A stretch of 64,000 nt of DNA, from NCBI GenBank assembly GCA_050953045.1, contig JBMNLY010000001.1:156534-220533 (forward strand), given 5' to 3'. The first letter of the stretch is position 1, and every line of letters begins with the position of its first letter. This DNA comes from Bacilli bacterium (GTDB lineage: Bacteria; Bacillota_I; Bacilli_A; ML615J-28; CAG-698). Made by a program: the position numbers and the translations under genes. Below, piece after piece: positions 52,146-59,354 of the stretch. A model generated the notes under the pieces. It searched no databases and was not told where the DNA came from. It was given only the letters and a program-made list of their open reading frames with translations.

Positions 52146-52198
52146 TCAGAGAAGATTATCTTAATGATGGCGAATAGTTCATCATTAATCTTCTCTGA
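52146..52198. repeat. hairpin element carrying GAGAAGATTATCTT motif (TCAGAGAAGATTA[TCT]TAATGATG - loop - CATCATTAATCTTCTCTGA)
   Basis: 20-bp inverted repeat; prototype of motif family recurring 52.1-59.4 kb. Confidence 0.7.
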
Positions 52199-52218
52199 AT
52201 CTGGCAAAGGAGTTCATT

Positions 52219-53262
52219 ATGAGCACAGTACTTAATATCAATCGTTTCATCATCCCTAACGATGTTGTAGTTTCGCTTTCGACGGTTTACCGCTGGATCG
52301 GAAAAAATGGATTTTTTGAAGAAACGGTTAAAACTGATTTAAATAGGATTGTACAAGCAACAGTTGAAAGAGATGCTTATTTTCTTTTAAAAATCTTAGA
52401 TTTAAATGTAACCGATTCAAGAGCTCGTTTGATTATTACCAAGAATTCTAATCCTCGTACCAAGGATGAAACTGCACTCTTTCGGCTCAAGGAATTGCTG
52501 TTACAAATTCAAGAAAATTATCGCGAAATCCGCCACCAAAGCAATGATTTATTAGACTTGGCTAATTTTCTTTTCTCACATTATCATGAGATAAAATTTA
52601 CTTATGAAGAAACAGATAAGAAAACTGTTTTAAAAAGTCAAGCCAATCGCAGCAAACGCTTAATTTTGGATAAAATCAATGAACAGGCTGATGAAATTAA
52701 TGAAAAAAAGAGTTTTGAAAAACTCGTGCTTTACTTAAATCTTTTTATCGATTTTTATAATATTGCTCCCTTTACGGAGAGGAATAAAGAAGTATCTTTA
52801 ATCTTGTTATTGCTATTACTCTTAAAAGCGGATCTTGAAGCTTTTCGGTATGTCAGCTTTTTTGAACTCTTGAATAATAACTTATCTGAATTTAAAACTG
52901 AAGTCAAAAATGCCAGTTTTAACTGGAAAGAGGGTTTTGCTCAAACAATGGGCTTTATCCGTTTTATGTTGCGTTTAGTAATAAATGCTTATGAAAAAGC
53001 TTATGATATCATTAAAGATTATCAGTTTGATACTAATTTAAATAAGGGTTATAATATCAAAAACACAATACTTAAACTGCCGCAAATCTTTACAAAAGAT
53101 GAAATAAGAATCTTACATCCTTTTGTGAGTGATTCTACAATTAACCGGACCTTAATTAGAATGCGGGATGAGGGGTTGATTAAACCATTAGGAAAAGGAA
53201 GATCCGCAAAATGGATTCGGATCACTCAGGAAAAGGACTATGGCAAAAACCAACTATCATAA
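52219..53262 (+). CDS. hypothetical protein with C-terminal winged-helix DNA-binding domain (possibly degenerate Fic/DOC-like)
   Basis: C-term ..RTLIRMRDEGLIKPLGKGRSAKWIRI wHTH pattern; no intact HPFx[DE]GNGR motif. Confidence 0.45.
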   Translation: MSTVLNINRFIIPNDVVVSLSTVYRWIGKNGFFEETVKTDLNRIVQATVERDAYFLLKILDLNVTDSRARLIITKNSNPRTKDETALFRLKELLLQIQENYREIRHQSNDLLDLANFLFSHYHEIKFTYEETDKKTVLKSQANRSKRLILDKINEQADEINEKKSFEKLVLYLNLFIDFYNIAPFTERNKEVSLILLLLLLLKADLEAFRYVSFFELLNNNLSEFKTEVKNASFNWKEGFAQTMGFIRFMLRLVINAYEKAYDIIKDYQFDTNLNKGYNIKNTILKLPQIFTKDEIRILHPFVSDSTINRTLIRMRDEGLIKPLGKGRSAKWIRITQEKDYGKNQLS

Positions 53263-54019
53263 CCATACCTATTTATGTCAACATGCCCAAGGCTTACCCT
53301 ATGATTATATTAAGCGTGCTGTTGAACTTGACTACGATGAAATTGGAATGAGTGATCACGGACCAATATTATATGATCTTTTTGCCCGAATGACGCTTTC
53401 TGAATTTTATGATATTTATTTACCTGATATCGAGAAAGCCAAACAAGAATTTTTTAAGCAGATTAAAATCTACAAAGGACTCGAAATTGAATATTTCCAA
53501 AATCATCATCAACATTATGAAATGTTATTGAAAGACCTTGATTACTTAATTTTGGGTCAGCATGTCCTTATTCATCAAAGCAAGTTCATTGATGTCTTTC
53601 GGGATATGAATGATGAATATTTGGAACTATATAAAGATACTGTAATTGAAGCATTAGAAACCAAGTATTTTCGGATTTTGGCTCACCCCGACATTTATCT
53701 TTTTGGCTACCAAACATGGAATGAAAAAACCGAAAAAGTCGCTAGAGCTATCATTGAAGCAGCAATCCGAACCGATACGCTTCTGGAAATTAATGCAAAC
53801 GGCATCAGAAGAAGAAGGATTATCAATCAAGATGGAGAAGAGGTTTATCTTTATCCTCGGAAAGAATTCTGGACTCTTTTAAAAGCTTATCCGGAAGCAC
53901 AAATCATAATTAATGAAGACAATCATGCTTTAAAACAAATAGGAGATAAAGCTGTCTTCCGGGCACATGAGTTTGCTCAGGAGTTAAATTTAACGATAAG
54001 GGATTTTCTTTATGATTAG
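53240..54019 (+). CDS. PHP-family histidinol-phosphatase-like phosphoesterase (HisJ family)
   Basis: N-term YHNHTYLCQHA...DHGP metal-binding motifs. Confidence 0.7.
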   Translation: MAKTNYHNHTYLCQHAQGLPYDYIKRAVELDYDEIGMSDHGPILYDLFARMTLSEFYDIYLPDIEKAKQEFFKQIKIYKGLEIEYFQNHHQHYEMLLKDLDYLILGQHVLIHQSKFIDVFRDMNDEYLELYKDTVIEALETKYFRILAHPDIYLFGYQTWNEKTEKVARAIIEAAIRTDTLLEINANGIRRRRIINQDGEEVYLYPRKEFWTLLKAYPEAQIIINEDNHALKQIGDKAVFRAHEFAQELNLTIRDFLYD

Positions 54020-54812
54020 CATCTACAAATGGCGTTTATTCTATTTAATACTTTCATCAATTTTACTGCTTACACTTGCATATTTTGTCATCAAAGAACG
54101 TTTTTCTTATGATATTTTTTTTCTGTTAATTGTTTTTTTCCTCTTTTTACATTTCTTTTTCCAAAGATTTGAAAAGAAGAAAACGTTAAAAATCCATATG
54201 ATTTACCTGCAGGATTTAAATCCTTTAGCTTATCTGGAAGAATATCAGAAATTTAATAAAAAACGTTTCTTATCAAAAGCAGCAAAATCAATAAATAAAA
54301 TTAATAGTGCCCTTGTTTTGCTTACCGCAGATAAGATTGAAAAAGCTCATCAAATTCTAATTGGTCTTGTGGATCAAGAACCGAAATTTGGGCCTTATCT
54401 TCGTTTCTGGTATTATACAGCCTGGATTAATTACTATGACGAAGTTGATGATCTAACTAGGATGAAATTTCTGCTGGAGCAGAATAAAGCAATCTTAAAA
54501 GAAATACCTCCTAAATATCGCCAAAAATTAGTTGAAAATTTTGAGTTTTTTAAAGCAAAATGTTTTGTAAAGGAAGGCATTTTTCTCGACACTGCAGAAA
54601 ACTACTTCTATGACATCCTCCGCACTAACCTGCCTAAACTAACCATCTTAAATTGCGTTTACCAACTTGGAGTTATTGCTTATAAGAACGGAAAATATGA
54701 ACTTTCTAAAAGAAGGTTTCAGTCGGTAGTGATGAACGGAAAAGACTTAAACGAAGCCAAGAAAGCAAAAACATTCCTTGAGAAAATAGATGAACTTAAC
54801 CTAAATGCATAG
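54012..54812 (+). CDS. hypothetical membrane protein with two N-terminal TM helices and TPR-like helical C-terminal domain
   Basis: hydrophobic N-term LFYLILSSILLLTLAYFVI / IFFLLIVFFLFLHFFF. Confidence 0.45.
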   Translation: MISIYKWRLFYLILSSILLLTLAYFVIKERFSYDIFFLLIVFFLFLHFFFQRFEKKKTLKIHMIYLQDLNPLAYLEEYQKFNKKRFLSKAAKSINKINSALVLLTADKIEKAHQILIGLVDQEPKFGPYLRFWYYTAWINYYDEVDDLTRMKFLLEQNKAILKEIPPKYRQKLVENFEFFKAKCFVKEGIFLDTAENYFYDILRTNLPKLTILNCVYQLGVIAYKNGKYELSKRRFQSVVMNGKDLNEAKKAKTFLEKIDELNLNA

Positions 54813-54863
54813 ATTAAACCAACTCTCAATTTTGAGAGTTTTATTTTTTTAACCTTATTCTAA

Positions 54864-54875
54864 GAAGATTATCTT
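54864..54875 (+). repeat. GAAGATTATCTT motif copy (followed by TTCATCATTAA half, degenerate hairpin element)
   Basis: exact 10-mer AGATTATCTT. Confidence 0.6.
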
Positions 54876-54942
54876 TAATATTGTTTAGAGTTCATCATTA
54901 AACCTATTAAATAGCGCATATACTCTTATAAGCATGCTATAA

Positions 54943-54954
54943 GAAGATTATCTT
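54943..54954 (+). repeat. GAAGATTATCTT motif copy, about 90 bp upstream of PP-loop operon
   Basis: exact 10-mer. Confidence 0.6.
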
Positions 54955-55041
54955 TTCTTTGTTTAACAATTATAGTATAATTTTATTACATGTCGATTCT
55001 TAGCAGCTTTGTGCTATTATTGAAGAAGAAAGGAAATTGGT

Positions 55042-56436
55042 ATGGAATATTATCTACAAAAACGCTGGAAATTAGAAGAGCGAAGTTTAGTTTATTATGG
55101 CCTTCGAAACAAAGAAAATTTATTTAAGAACACTATAAAACTCTCTAAGAAACAAAGTAGGATTATAGGTAGTTTACCGAAGACGCTGGATGAAAAGGAA
55201 TGTGTAATCTTAAAGAAATTTATCGGTAAACAGGTTGTTTTGAAAAAAGATCTTAAAAAAATTCCTAAATCTTTAAAAGAAGCAAAATTCTGTAAGGAAT
55301 GCGTTGCAAATGATTATATGATACCTGGCTTAGAATTAAACGATTTCGGATTATGTCCCTTATGTCAAACCAAGGAACTTGCGGAAACTTTAAAAAGCGT
55401 CGTTCCGATTCTAAACGAGATTCCAAAATCAAAAAAATCCAGATTTGATGTCGGTCTTTTTTACACCGGTGGTAAAGATTCTACATATCTTTTGTATTAT
55501 TTATCAGAGGTCTTACAATTACGGGTACTCGCTATGACATGGGAAATCCCTTTTATCTCCTCTTCCGCAAAAGCCAGCATTGAGAATGCGAAAAGGAAAC
55601 TCGCAAATGTAGAATTTATTACTAAAAAGATAAACGATAATGATTTACGTAAAATCTATAATAAACTCTATTCTTTAAATGAAAACACCTGTGCCTGTCC
55701 TTCGCTAGCTTATATTCTTTTTTATCCTGATTTGGTAGAAAACAAAGTTCCATATTTTGTTGTTGGTAATGAACCCGTGCAAATGCTTGGCCTTTATTAT
55801 AATCAGATGGCACCAAAAATTGCTTACAGATTCTCCAATTATTTTCTTTTAAATCTTTTAATAAATATTTTTCGAATGCTTACCTTAAGACCACCTTTTA
55901 AAAAAGGTCAACTCCATACACTCATGACAATGAAGCAACTTGCTTATGGTGACAGTTTCGTAAAGAAAATTTCAAAATATAAAAATGAATTGGTTTCAAA
56001 TGTAGTAGCTTCCATCCATGAAGTCAAGTCAATCCTAATTCCCTTAAAAAGAAGTATCAGAAGATCAGCATGGACCGGAAGCATTCCCCGTTTTGTCCAT
56101 ATTGATTTAAATGACATCTCCGGCGGAATCTATGATTGGCAGAATGTAAAAGAAATTATAATTGATAAATGTGGTTGGGTGGCTCCGGAAGAGAAAGGAA
56201 AAGGACTTCATACCAGCTGCTCAATCGAAAAATGCAAAGAATATTCTCAATTCCAAAGATTCTATCATATGAGAAGCAAAATGATACCTTTCAGCGCCTT
56301 AGAAATAGCTCTTGCGAGTAGAAACAAAAACATTACGAGAGAAGAAGCAGTTTATGAATTAGAAAGAGTACTTGGCTTTTCTTTAACTGAAATTCCTGAA
56401 TGCAAGATTATGAAAGATTATTTAGGAGCAAAATAA
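55042..56436 (+). CDS. zinc-ribbon + PP-loop ATP pyrophosphatase of TtuA/Ncs6/TtcA-like type with ~250-aa C-terminal extension
   Basis: CKEC...CPLC zinc ribbon then FYTGGKDSTYLL (SGGxDS PP-loop); further Cys pairs CAC, C..C..KC. Confidence 0.55.
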   Translation: MEYYLQKRWKLEERSLVYYGLRNKENLFKNTIKLSKKQSRIIGSLPKTLDEKECVILKKFIGKQVVLKKDLKKIPKSLKEAKFCKECVANDYMIPGLELNDFGLCPLCQTKELAETLKSVVPILNEIPKSKKSRFDVGLFYTGGKDSTYLLYYLSEVLQLRVLAMTWEIPFISSSAKASIENAKRKLANVEFITKKINDNDLRKIYNKLYSLNENTCACPSLAYILFYPDLVENKVPYFVVGNEPVQMLGLYYNQMAPKIAYRFSNYFLLNLLINIFRMLTLRPPFKKGQLHTLMTMKQLAYGDSFVKKISKYKNELVSNVVASIHEVKSILIPLKRSIRRSAWTGSIPRFVHIDLNDISGGIYDWQNVKEIIIDKCGWVAPEEKGKGLHTSCSIEKCKEYSQFQRFYHMRSKMIPFSALEIALASRNKNITREEAVYELERVLGFSLTEIPECKIMKDYLGAK

Positions 56437-56437
56437 A

Positions 56438-57142
56438 ATGAATTTAGTTATTTGTTTTTCTCCGACTGGAGGAACAAAGAAAATCGCTGATTATGCAGCA
56501 AATTATCTAAATTTTCAATTGCTTGACTTAACAGCTTTTAAAGATCACAAAGATTTCAATTTCCAACAAGAATTCGATTATCTCGTTCTTTGTTTTCCGG
56601 TTTACTCACAAAACATTCCTAAACCAGTTAAAGAAATTATCAAAAAACTGAAAGCTAAATGTTATATTCTAATAGCTACCTACGGTAGAATGCATATGGG
56701 TAATGTTTTATGGGAAGCAAACAAACACTTACAGGGAAGATTGATCGGTGGTGCCTATATACCGACAAAACATACTTATCAAGAAGGAGATTATTTTAAA
56801 GATTATCAAAAACTTAATTCCCTGCTTTCTAGAGCAATAAAAAAAGAAACCAAGCAAATTGTAATTCCGAAACTAAAGAAGAATCCTTTTGCTGATTTCT
56901 TTCCAAATGGAAGAAGCCGGTATGCGATAAAAATAAAGAAGAACGCAAATTGCAATAAATGTAATCATTGTAACCGCGTTTGTCCACAAGAAGCTATTAA
57001 TTTTGGAACAATTACGAAGGACTGTATTAGATGCCTTAGCTGTTATTACAATTGTCCGAATAAAGCTTTGGAAGTAAAATATTCAATTTTCTTAAAAGCT
57101 TATTTAAAAAAGGATAAAATTAAAGATTTAATTATTTACTAA
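56438..57142 (+). CDS. flavodoxin-like domain fused to 2x[4Fe-4S] ferredoxin domain
   Basis: N-term CFSPTGGTKKIADY flavodoxin signature; C-term CNKCNHCNRVCP and CIRCLSCYYNCP; ATG 1 nt after upstream stop. Confidence 0.65.
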   Translation: MNLVICFSPTGGTKKIADYAANYLNFQLLDLTAFKDHKDFNFQQEFDYLVLCFPVYSQNIPKPVKEIIKKLKAKCYILIATYGRMHMGNVLWEANKHLQGRLIGGAYIPTKHTYQEGDYFKDYQKLNSLLSRAIKKETKQIVIPKLKKNPFADFFPNGRSRYAIKIKKNANCNKCNHCNRVCPQEAINFGTITKDCIRCLSCYYNCPNKALEVKYSIFLKAYLKKDKIKDLIIY

Positions 57143-57163
57143 TAATCAATACCCCTTTTTAGA

Positions 57164-57175
57164 GAAGATTATCTT
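57164..57175 (+). repeat. GAAGATTATCTT motif copy between convergent gene ends
   Basis: exact 10-mer. Confidence 0.6.
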
Positions 57176-57259
57176 TTATTAAGCGGGCAATTAACAATAA
57201 AGATTTTCTCAAGCCCTCTTTAGAAAATCTTTAATTTATTCTCTTATATAAATAGCGCT

Positions 57260-57748
57260 TTATTCGTCGCCTTTATCAATAAATTTCTTTATCAAACGAA
57301 CAAATTCAGCTATTTCCTGATGATCGATTGTAGGTGCAATAAAATTAGGATTTTTCATTAAGGCTTTAGTCATTAATTTGGCTAAACCTTTTTGTTTTTC
57401 TAGAATTAATACTCCTCCGAAAGTCTTCATGACAAGGGCATCGTTTCTGATGCTTTCTGTAAAATTTTGACTCATTACCTTAGTAAATGTTTCAGGTAAC
57501 CCTTGGCAAACAAAGATCGCAAAATTTTTTTCTTGAATTAAATTTTTGTATTTTTTCAAAAACCTCTTAATCTTAGGGTGAACCATTCCCATACGGATAG
57601 AAGAACCAATAATGATAATATCATAATCATTTAAATTTCCATTGTCAGCCTCTAAATTGATAAGAGAAGCATCCAGGGCTTTACTCAATATCCCTGCACA
57701 ATATTCAGTAGTACCTGTTTTTCCAGCATAGATTATCCCTATTTTCAT
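57260..57748 (-). CDS. flavodoxin family protein
   Basis: MKIGIIYAGKTGTTEYCAG flavodoxin-like N-term, 162 aa. Confidence 0.6.
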   Translation of the reverse strand: MKIGIIYAGKTGTTEYCAGILSKALDASLINLEADNGNLNDYDIIIIGSSIRMGMVHPKIKRFLKKYKNLIQEKNFAIFVCQGLPETFTKVMSQNFTESIRNDALVMKTFGGVLILEKQKGLAKLMTKALMKNPNFIAPTIDHQEIAEFVRLIKKFIDKGDE

Positions 57749-57836
57749 TCAAACCTCCTAAATTTAATTACCATAATAATACAAAAATCGAGTGAGATTG
57801 GCAAAGGATATTTTAATGTGTAAGAATCCTTGTTCT

Positions 57837-57850
57837 GAAAAGATTATCTT
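57837..57850 (+). repeat. GAAAAGATTATCTT motif copy + TTCATCATTAA half, about 95 bp upstream of flavodoxin start
   Basis: exact 10-mer; same composite architecture as 52146 and 54864 copies. Confidence 0.6.
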
Positions 57851-58177
57851 TATTAATGCCGGTTATTCATCATTAAGCTAATCAAATTTGGCCATAAATT
57901 ACCTTAGTTAAAGAAATATAGGAAGATGTTATAAGTAATCAAAAAGAATTTAATATATTTATTTTTGGATTTATAGATAAACAACTGACTTCCTATAATA
58001 TATATTATGTTAAGTAGATAATATATACGACCCTGCCTGAAAAAATAAAACGGTGTTTAGATGTTGAAATAAGCAATTCACTTAATAGATAACAATAAAG
58101 TAATTATCACCTAGATTGGAAAGGGCAACTCTCAGGCGCTTATTAAACAACTTTATTCATGATTCTCCATCTCAAAA

Positions 58178-58194
58178 AAGATAACCTTCTGAGA
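58178..58194 (-). repeat. motif copy (rc TCTCAGAAGGTTATCTT, 1 mismatch)
   Basis: within ORF-free 1.1-kb region. Confidence 0.45.
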
Positions 58195-58264
58195 GGCTCG
58201 GTTTAAATTGATTCTTTAATAAGATCTTTGATTTGATTAATTATGATTTTCTCTTAACCAAACA

Positions 58265-58277
58265 AAAGATAATCTCC
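58265..58277 (-). repeat. motif copy (rc GGAGATTATCTTT)
   Basis: exact 10-mer. Confidence 0.5.
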
Positions 58278-58441
58278 TTTAAAGCAGCTTCTTCTTTTTC
58301 TATATTTTTTTCATTAATCAAAACAATCATAAACTGATATTGGATAATACATCAGATCAATTTAGAAAGAGAAAATATTTCTGACTATTACGGATTAAAA
58401 AAATCTTATTAGAAGGTCAACGGATCATAACTTTACTAAAT

Positions 58442-58459
58442 TAAAGATAATCTTCTCTA
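58442..58459 (-). repeat. motif copy (rc CTAGAGAAGATTATCTTT)
   Basis: exact 10-mer with GAGAAG flank. Confidence 0.6.
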
Positions 58460-58845
58460 GTGAGGTCTTTTGAAGCATGATACAAATAAAAAAAGCTCCC
58501 TTTAAGAGAAAGCTTAATACAGAGTCTAAATTACTATTAAACAGGCCAAACTCCAAATTTCCCTTTACACCGTTTTTGGTTCAGGAGTGAGTATTTTATG
58601 GTCCTAATTGATAAAATGGAAATTGGGCGAAATTTAAGAGTGAATATCTACGCTTGAAGGCAAATTTATAAATAGATTAAATAAGCTATGAATAAAGGTA
58701 GATAATATTCGACTTTTTTCTACATTCTTCTACAAATAAATTAACTCATTATTGATTGCTGACTGCATTTAATGAAAATAATAGAGTAAAATGTCGAAAT
58801 AATTAGTATAATTTGTAAAAGGTTGTAATAATTAAATGAATTCTA

Positions 58846-59280
58846 TCAGAAAAACTTGATTATTGTAACAGCAAGAAGTCCCGACATTTCTAAAGCATTA
58901 ATAATCAGTCCAAAAGAATTTAAAACTAAACCGGTTGTTGCATAATAACCGGATTTTCTGATAATCCTTGCTTTTAGAAAGCCAATTGTTCCACAAATCA
59001 TCCCAATCAATGTGAAAACAAGAACCGAAAAGATCATTCCAATTTGAATGATTTTATCGTCTGTATCAGTTAAGATGATTGCTAAAATCAAAAACATTGA
59101 TACAAGAGAAAGAGCTAGACTTACGCAACCTAAAGCATTAAGTACCAACATATTCTTCTGCTTTTTTCTTTCGTATCTTTTTATTTCGTCAATACTTTTT
59201 TCAAACACTGGTTGTTCCATATCCGCCTCGTTTACAATTGGTTTAATAATATTATTTCTGAAATGATGAAATTTATACAA
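58846..59280 (-). CDS. hypothetical membrane protein (3-4 TM)
   Basis: 144 aa, hydrophobic C-terminal two thirds. Confidence 0.45.
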   Translation of the reverse strand: MYKFHHFRNNIIKPIVNEADMEQPVFEKSIDEIKRYERKKQKNMLVLNALGCVSLALSLVSMFLILAIILTDTDDKIIQIGMIFSVLVFTLIGMICGTIGFLKARIIRKSGYYATTGLVLNSFGLIINALEMSGLLAVTIIKFF

Positions 59281-59337
59281 ACTTGTATTATTGAGGCGGA
59301 TTTTGAGATGTTTTATAGAAGAATTCTACGTCACAAA

Positions 59338-59354
59338 AAGATAATCTACTCAGA
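59338..59354 (-). repeat. motif copy (rc TGAGTAGATTATCTTT), about 60 bp upstream of membrane protein start
   Basis: exact 10-mer. Confidence 0.5.

Follow-up and report, generated by a model that had tools for sequence, protein, structure and literature searches.

What would a PP-loop ATP pyrophosphatase do with an electron carrier of its own? This question is raised by two adjoining genes, here called A and B, in a 64,000-nt stretch of a Bacilli genome (contig JBMNLY010000001.1, positions 156,534 to 220,533), the whole of which is referred to below as the window. A encodes a Zn-ribbon/PP-loop protein and B a flavodoxin-ferredoxin protein. An earlier note made from the sequence alone (the original prediction) had read the pair as a two-gene operon in which a PP-loop adenylating enzyme is wired to a dedicated low-potential carrier, and had suggested a redox-dependent modification of a nucleoside, an RNA or perhaps a peptide. 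The operon is confirmed by the open reading frames (ORFs) and by the junction sequence AAA-TAA-A-ATG, in which 1 nt separates the stop codon of A from the ATG of B, and a terminator-like hairpin after the upstream gene (54012-54812) indicates that A-B is its own transcription unit (Table 1).

Linkage of A to B

The linkage of the two genes was determined for reference genomes and for metagenomes, 85 loci in all. The results showed that B lies directly downstream of A in 84 of them, the exception having 132 nt of contig left after A. Adjacency was found in every testable locus (>90), in three arrangements, co-directional, fused and convergent; P0027 and P0031 join A and B in frame in one protein of 702 aa, and in an outgroup of four loci with 42-47% identity to A the B-like gene is adjacent but convergent in all four, as confirmed by tblastn for three and by size and Fer4 domain matches for the fourth. 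In L009, A and a B-like gene are also adjacent and convergent. When the search was started from B, all three homologues on long contigs (3/3) had A directly upstream. Together, the adjacency, the fusions, the convergent outgroup pairs and the search from B bear out the dedicated carrier of the original prediction, and the two genes co-occur across genomes as its proposed neighbourhood check would have it.

Neither sequence clustering nor a Pfam census, in which 133 flanking proteins fell into 126 Pfam families, gave a third conserved partner, and the next commonest neighbour after B occurs in 13 of the 85 loci. The context is indeed unlike those of TtuA-TtuB or TtcA, as had been claimed, since no sulfur-carrier or E1 gene lies beside A-B in any of the 85 loci. 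In addition, no glutamine amidotransferase (GATase)/HisF-like ammonia supplier and no glycan-biosynthesis gene recurs in neighbourhoods that consist of unrelated housekeeping genes. We read A-B as a self-contained two-protein enzyme that in some genomes is a single fused protein.

B passes the NCBIfam model NF038196 (EFR1 family ferredoxin) with 85.1 bits against a threshold of 75, its residues 4-214 covering model positions 1-232 of 242. Its N-terminal half gives flavodoxin-like matches and both of its ferredoxin Cys motifs are conserved, so that its proposed make-up, a flavodoxin joined to a 2x[4Fe-4S] ferredoxin, was upheld by the motifs and the EFR1 score alike. Within the EFR1 family, whose members share the flavodoxin-like domain and the two 4Fe-4S motifs over the full length of B, the B subgroup is set apart by its obligate linkage to A. 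A literature search for the function of the EFR1 family gave no description. A role of B as a ThiS/TtuB-like sulfur carrier was considered and rejected, its C-terminus being hydrophobic and variable and having no Gly-Gly; B may itself be a substrate of A. Separately, L148 carries at 2000-2218, upstream of A, a ferredoxin-like fragment resembling residues 152-224 of B, in addition to a full B gene downstream.

Relatives of A occur in 361 of 185,579 species-representative genomes, and the best 80 of these 361 are almost all metagenome-assembled genomes (MAGs) of Oscillospiraceae, Acutalibacteraceae, Christensenellales-like Clostridia and Acholeplasmatales. The carriers of the pair, counted as 361 species-level genomes, are almost all uncultured gut and digester Bacillota. 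Protein databases hold >1000 homologues, of which every named one that we found is labelled "hypothetical", including an identical copy of A in an Acholeplasmataceae MAG, and there is no Pfam family for them; after clustering at 50% just 55 clusters reach E 1e-30. A evolves slowly: across the 85 loci, which range over Acholeplasmatales and many Clostridia families, most copies are 63-68% identical to the protein of the window. B is much more variable (35-60% in the same loci). Plasmid and phage collections gave no full-length match to A and one distant partial match, with no sign of mobility.

Fold and predicted metal sites of A

The original prediction had compared A to tRNA thiolases and had left some 250 C-terminal residues without obvious homology. 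A Pfam search of A gave no match, ATP_bind_3 included, so that of the hidden Markov model searches it had proposed that for Flavodoxin gave flavodoxin-like matches for B and that for ATP_bind_3 failed for A. A single-sequence search of the PDB with A likewise gave no match. The best NCBIfam match is TIGR03573 (WbuX), at 71.9 bits against a cut-off of 203.2 and over model positions 2-172 of 344 only. An AlphaFold model of A built with 71 homologues (pLDDT 90.7, pTM 0.87) has as its best structural match LpNASAT, an N-acetyl sugar amidotransferase (NASAT), and shares its overall fold. A comparison by hhalign of residues 79-445 of A with NASAT-like relatives of ~370 aa gave 100% probability and E 1e-40, and by this profile-profile match the supposedly orphan C-terminal region is the diverged second half of a NASAT-like fold. 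A is therefore a Zn-ribbon/PP-loop enzyme of the NASAT-like lineage and not a TtuA/TtcA-type tRNA thiolase with an odd tail.

The CxxC...CxxC ribbon and the PP-loop were found where they had been placed, the latter given as FYTGGKDSTYLL, residues 140-151. The ribbon aligns to that of 8wex and is equivalent to the Zn tetracysteine motif of LpNASAT (PMC10607449), and the PP-loop (TGGKDS, 142-147) aligns with those of PH1257, 8wex, TtuA and NcsA, the last two by way of the NASAT-like profile. A helical insertion that appears as a gap in the hhalign comparison (Table 1) is found in the alignments only in B-coupled clades; it is shortened in a clade of intermediates with 28-30% identity to A, for which none of 57 loci shows a B-like gene within 8 kb. 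The insertion is a possible docking surface for B.

Beyond the PP-loop, C217 and C219 of A correspond to the CxxC of TtuA (C128/C131), NcsA and CtaC (C154/C157). The profile of the NASAT-like relatives matches TtuA (PH0300) and NcsA directly, its P-C-x-x-C falling on "PPCSYC" (C128/C131) of TtuA PH0300 and on "NPCSFC" of NcsA. The spacing from PP-loop to cysteines in A is also close to that of CtaC, the closthioamide thioamide synthetase, for which PMC6772006 gives D77/S78 followed by C154, C157 and C284. CXXC+C is the recognised [4Fe-4S] signature of the sulfur-inserting members of the PP-loop superfamily (PMC9825150), in which three cysteines hold the cluster and its free iron carries a hydrosulfide (PMC9825150; PMC6772006). 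In A the pair is spaced CxC and not CxxC; C217, C219 and C393 nevertheless stand at positions homologous to CXXC+C, and a fourth cysteine, C398, is extra. The three cysteines, together with H390, are kept in the core family, in an outgroup of 40-50% identity, in the intermediates of 28-30% identity and in 15 sampled NASAT-like relatives, whereas the classical NASAT 8wex is without Cys at these positions, its aligned segments reading "HPFQPF" and "IDDKID". These homologous positions make it very probable that A holds a [4Fe-4S] cluster next to its ATP site.

The fourth cysteine follows the partner gene. C398 is present in 119/119 proteins of the core family, which has B as partner, and in 40 of 43 outgroup proteins (<55% identity to A; B stands beside A in all four loci examined). 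In contrast, it is found in 0/34 of the B-less intermediates and in 0/22 NASAT-like relatives, among which a B partner was looked for in one plasmid relative only.

The NASAT-like body of A is preceded by an 80-residue domain that is absent from the ~370-aa relatives. Folded alone (pLDDT 85.9), it forms beta-strands followed by helices, and its fold matches are dominated by proteins that bear recognition elements (RREs) of peptides that are made on the ribosome and modified after translation (RiPPs), namely LynD, MibB, NisB, SuiB, TbtB, MccB, MadB, TglI, PqqD and PbtF. Foldseek put the same RRE proteins on top, with no significance (best E 1.2), and sequence-level PqqD/RRE detection on ten such N-terminal domains gave no match, the Pfam PqqD model missing them. 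The modelled fold thus lends moderate support to an RRE-like domain. No conserved small ORF was found within 700 nt of A-B in the 85 loci, where the recurring "peptides" resemble translated tRNA or repeat DNA, and there was no credible precursor peptide in the gaps of the window or in the 500-nt gap of L145. As a separate observation, short "ORFs" that recur in the flanks of L022, L024, L034, L037, L041, L044 and L058 suggest tRNA genes or repeats beside the pair in that Clostridia sub-lineage.

A proposed reaction and its alternatives

Given the domain composition, homologies, motif conservation and obligate linkage described above, we infer the cofactor content, electron flow, substrate class and reaction of A-B. 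The reading that we favour, tentatively and at somewhat less than an even chance, is that A adenylates the carbonyl of a peptide-like or other amide or carboxyl substrate and that electrons from B act through the cluster of A. The substrate, most likely a peptide, a protein segment or another amide-bearing molecule, would be held with the help of the N-terminal domain. ATP would then O-adenylate its amide or carboxyl carbonyl with release of PPi, a step suggested by the invariant PP-loop and by the chemistry common to NASAT, TtuA and CtaC. B would take low-potential electrons from cellular donors and pass them via its two [4Fe-4S] clusters and its flavodoxin-like domain to the fully Cys-ligated cluster of A, which would subject the activated intermediate to a redox step; AMP would leave. 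For this step we prefer reductive removal of the activated oxygen, the main alternative being reductive delivery of sulfide. A redox role of the cluster is preferred over that of a sulfide carrier mainly because C398 appears together with B; a cluster fully ligated by four cysteines is what electron transfer usually employs, and it has no iron free for a hydrosulfide. The peptide part of the target originally proposed fits the evidence best, and the relatives of A in peptide-tailoring contexts described below fit a peptide-type substrate. Taken to its furthest, A-B would be a new enzyme class for the ATP-driven deoxygenation of peptide or protein amides or carboxyls, with products such as an imine, an aldehyde or a peptide bond in reduced form on a target encoded elsewhere in gut Firmicutes, a claim that we consider unlikely.

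Several points weigh against our reading. No precursor peptide or other substrate gene is kept beside the pair in >90 loci, which is atypical for RiPP enzymes and is the biggest weakness of any peptide model; the substrate in such a model would have to be encoded elsewhere or be a metabolite. In 3 of the 43 outgroup proteins Val or Gly stands in the place of C398. To our knowledge, moreover, every characterised CXXC+C enzyme of the superfamily carries out a non-redox exchange of O for S, a precedent that, taken alone, would point to thiolation rather than reduction. A would then be a non-redox thioamide or thiocarbonyl synthetase like CtaC or TtuA, which adenylates an amide carbonyl and replaces its oxygen by a cluster-bound hydrosulfide, and B would only reduce persulfide (S0) to sulfide or maintain the cluster. 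We know of no characterised sulfur-inserting member that has a dedicated ferredoxin. This explanation, which we hold to be rather doubtful, has the best precedent, in that the CxC+C of A lines up with the residues that ligate the cluster in TtuA, NcsA and CtaC and every characterised enzyme with the motif that we know of inserts sulfur (PMC9825150; PMC6772006), while the NASAT-type fold is specialised for the activation of amide oxygens (PMC10607449). Relatives also stand in thiotemplated clusters comparable to that of CtaC, and the partners of the intermediate clade are ThiF-family E1-like proteins, which activate sulfur carriers in other systems. However, the characterised members are described as non-redox and as accepting free sulfide in vitro; the fourth Cys, which appears with B, would occupy the very iron that must stay free for sulfide; and B has no Gly-Gly C-terminus or other feature of a sulfur carrier. 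The fourth Cys and the obligate partner would both be left unexplained.

The likeness to the sulfurtransferases (TtuA, NcsA/Ncs6, TtcA, TtuI and MnmA) comprises a Cys pair ~70 residues past the PP-loop that aligns with their cluster ligands, a distal third Cys and a Zn-finger decoration. A departs from them by its CxC in place of CxxC, its fourth Cys and its lack of a match to Pfam ATP_bind_3 or to their overall fold; they in turn act on tRNA without redox and have neither an RRE-like domain nor a dedicated ferredoxin. With CtaC the very similar spacing of the ligands is set against a substrate tethered to a peptidyl carrier protein (PCP) rather than held by an RRE, a biosynthetic cluster and three Cys ligands only, and the consulted passages of PMC6772006 mention no ferredoxin or flavodoxin partner. 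That A is a PP-loop/Fe-S enzyme acting on a base of tRNA or rRNA, with B as its reductant, is the part of the original prediction that fared worse, and we judge it quite improbable. PP-loop proteins with CXXC+C are best known as tRNA thiolases, Acholeplasmatales and Clostridia members share ~65% identity amid housekeeping surroundings, and RumA/TrmA-like RNA methyltransferases (13/85 loci) and RluA-type pseudouridine synthases (8/85) occur as neighbours. These RNA enzymes are a weak indication, however, a small minority that may reflect shared synteny. No THUMP, TRAM, PUA or other RNA-binding domain was found in A, whose N-terminal domain best matches peptide-binding RREs and which has no ATP_bind_3 match, and so sporadic a distribution over species genomes would be unusual for a core RNA modification.

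A classical NASAT function, in which A supplies a surface glycan with an acetamidino sugar and B is an unrelated neighbour, would explain why WbuX is the best NCBIfam match and LpNASAT the best structural one. In common with the NASATs (WbuX, PseA, WbpG, LfnA; TIGR03573; 8WEX), A has a Zn tetracysteine ribbon directly before the PP-loop, and their presumed chemistry likewise starts with ATP-dependent activation of an amide oxygen. We consider it very improbable all the same: A scores far below the cut-off and over the N-terminal half of the model only, it has the Cys triad missing from 8wex together with an additional RRE-like N-terminal domain, the CxC+C(+C) site and the ~35-residue insertion, it stands in no glycan cluster, and the flavodoxin-ferredoxin protein is obligately linked and sometimes fused to it. 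Classical NASATs have HisH/HisF-like ammonia suppliers, and no such gene recurs near A-B.

Among systems of other descent, YcaO enzymes with RRE or TfuA partners are functional analogues of A as proposed, in that they activate the oxygens of peptide backbone amides with ATP under the guidance of an RRE; they differ by an unrelated fold, phosphorylation in place of adenylation, and the lack of an Fe-S cluster and of an electron carrier. For some YcaO-TfuA pairs the gene of the modified protein lies elsewhere, as with the thioglycine of methyl-coenzyme M reductase. Assimilatory adenosine 5'-phosphosulfate (APS) reductase and QueH are redox enzymes on the same nucleotide-hydrolase fold as A. They differ from A as proposed in that they do not themselves hydrolyse ATP to AMP and PPi, act on a sulfate ester or on epoxyqueuosine, and lack a Zn ribbon, an RRE and an EFR1 partner, whether fused or adjacent. 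A literature search for an RRE-fused or ferredoxin-coupled PP-loop or AANH (adenine nucleotide alpha hydrolase) enzyme found none described. The parts of A-B are each of known kinds; their combination, an RRE-like domain, an amide-activating PP-loop core, a TtuA/CtaC-type site with four cysteines and an obligate, sometimes fused electron carrier, is not, nor is the chemistry it implies. Should the coupling that we favour hold, redox chemistry would be added to a superfamily whose Fe-S members we know only for non-redox sulfur insertion, and a new kind of modification, post-translational or of a metabolite, could come to light in the gut microbiota.

Surroundings of the pair and distant relatives of A

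Table 1. Positions of the genes, protein segments and DNA elements discussed in the text, in window coordinates.
Feature	Position	Strand	Description
Gene A	55042..56436	+	464 aa; RRE-like / Zn-ribbon / PP-loop / Cys4 protein of the NASAT-like lineage
A residues 1-80	55042..55281	+	Predicted beta3-alpha3 winged-helix domain resembling RREs (PqqD-like)
A residues 84-108	55291..55365	+	Zinc ribbon C84-x2-C87...C105-x2-C108; invariant in all clades
A residues 140-147	55459..55482	+	PP-loop FYTGGKDS, ATP pyrophosphatase signature; invariant
A residues 217-219	55690..55698	+	C-x-C, first two ligands of the predicted [4Fe-4S] site
A residues 263-297	55828..55932	+	~35-residue helical insertion; gap in hhalign against NASAT-like proteins
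A residues 390-398	56209..56235	+	H-T-S-C393-x4-C398; C393 third conserved Cys, C398 fourth
Gene B	56438..57142	+	234 aa; EFR1 family, flavodoxin-like N-terminal domain and 2x[4Fe-4S] ferredoxin C-terminal domain
B residues 172-182	56951..56983	+	First CxxCxxCxxxC(P) motif, C172/175/178/182
B residues 196-206	57023..57055	+	Second CxxCxxCxxxCP motif, C196/199/202/206
Terminator-like hairpin	54821..54840	+	8-bp stem followed by a T-run; 3' of the upstream gene
Convergent flavodoxin gene	57260..57748	-	Flavodoxin_5, E 5e-21
GAAGATTATCTT, intergenic copies	52151, 54864, 54943, 57164, 57839	+	With the copies in the next row, nine within 7.3 kb
GAAGATTATCTT, intergenic copies	58178, 58266, 58444, 59338	-	

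The second flavodoxin gene that the original prediction had counted with the system is real (Table 1). As a component of the system it was rejected, since no homologue was found beside the pair in the 85 other loci, and it is probably an unrelated neighbour. The motif GAAGATTATCTT, said to bound all three genes, does bracket them with its copies at 54864, 54943, 57164 and 57839. The motif is near-palindromic and enriched in the window, with 16 matches at <=1 mismatch where 1.16 are expected, a number reached in 0/100 shuffles. Several copies stand 58-100 nt upstream of a gene start in the orientation of the gene, and three have TTCATCATTA about 15 nt downstream. As a signal specific to A-B it was rejected, given that its copies are spread over several transcription units (52151-59349) and that among 146 loci it was found elsewhere only in L007, the closest Acholeplasmatales relative; it is no feature of the system and may be an operator, a promoter element or a small repeat that is lineage-specific. 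Four copies, on both strands, lie in a region of ~1.1 kb (57749-58845) that gave no Rfam match and in which no ORF is credible, the longest having 43 aa. No riboswitch or other RNA motif was found near the operon in the window or in four outgroup loci.

The intermediate clade (L086-L142; e.g. L086:8001-11470 and L128:7935-12446) keeps the RRE-like domain, the Zn ribbon, the PP-loop and CxC+C, has no ferredoxin partner and often has as neighbours a gene for an E1-like protein of the ThiF family and one for an unannotated protein of 330-370 aa. A ThiF-family gene is close by in 20 of the 57 loci and directly adjacent in about half of those 20, and in L128 a methyltransferase and a YcaO gene follow directly downstream. 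The clade looks like a separate, uncharacterised peptide-modification system. P0269 (1282 aa) is an NRPS-like (nonribosomal peptide synthetase) protein in which a NASAT-like PP-loop core stands in the order AMP-binding / NASAT-like PP-loop core / PP-binding / BtrH_N, where an Fe-S-type PP-loop module has apparently been taken on for in-line tailoring. On the B. thuringiensis HD1002 plasmid NZ_CP009349 (L150:7004-7975), WP_000872602 (323 aa) is labelled "7-cyano-7-deazaguanine synthase" (QueC); it is a Zn-ribbon/PP-loop/CxxC+C NASAT-like protein amid an acyl carrier protein (ACP), two adenylate-forming enzymes, two PCPs, a ketosynthase and a thioesterase, and is probably a misannotated CtaC-like tailoring enzyme. 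The CxxC+C triad is invariant in the 15 sampled NASAT-like relatives, all sub-threshold, and missing in 8wex, the only solved NASAT, so that proteins labelled N-acetyl sugar amidotransferase by similarity may include many probable Fe-S enzymes with other chemistry. A correction of annotation would follow for the many NASAT-resembling proteins that have a probable Fe-S site, some of which stand in NRPS-like, thiotemplated or YcaO contexts and some of which, as with QueC, are misannotated.

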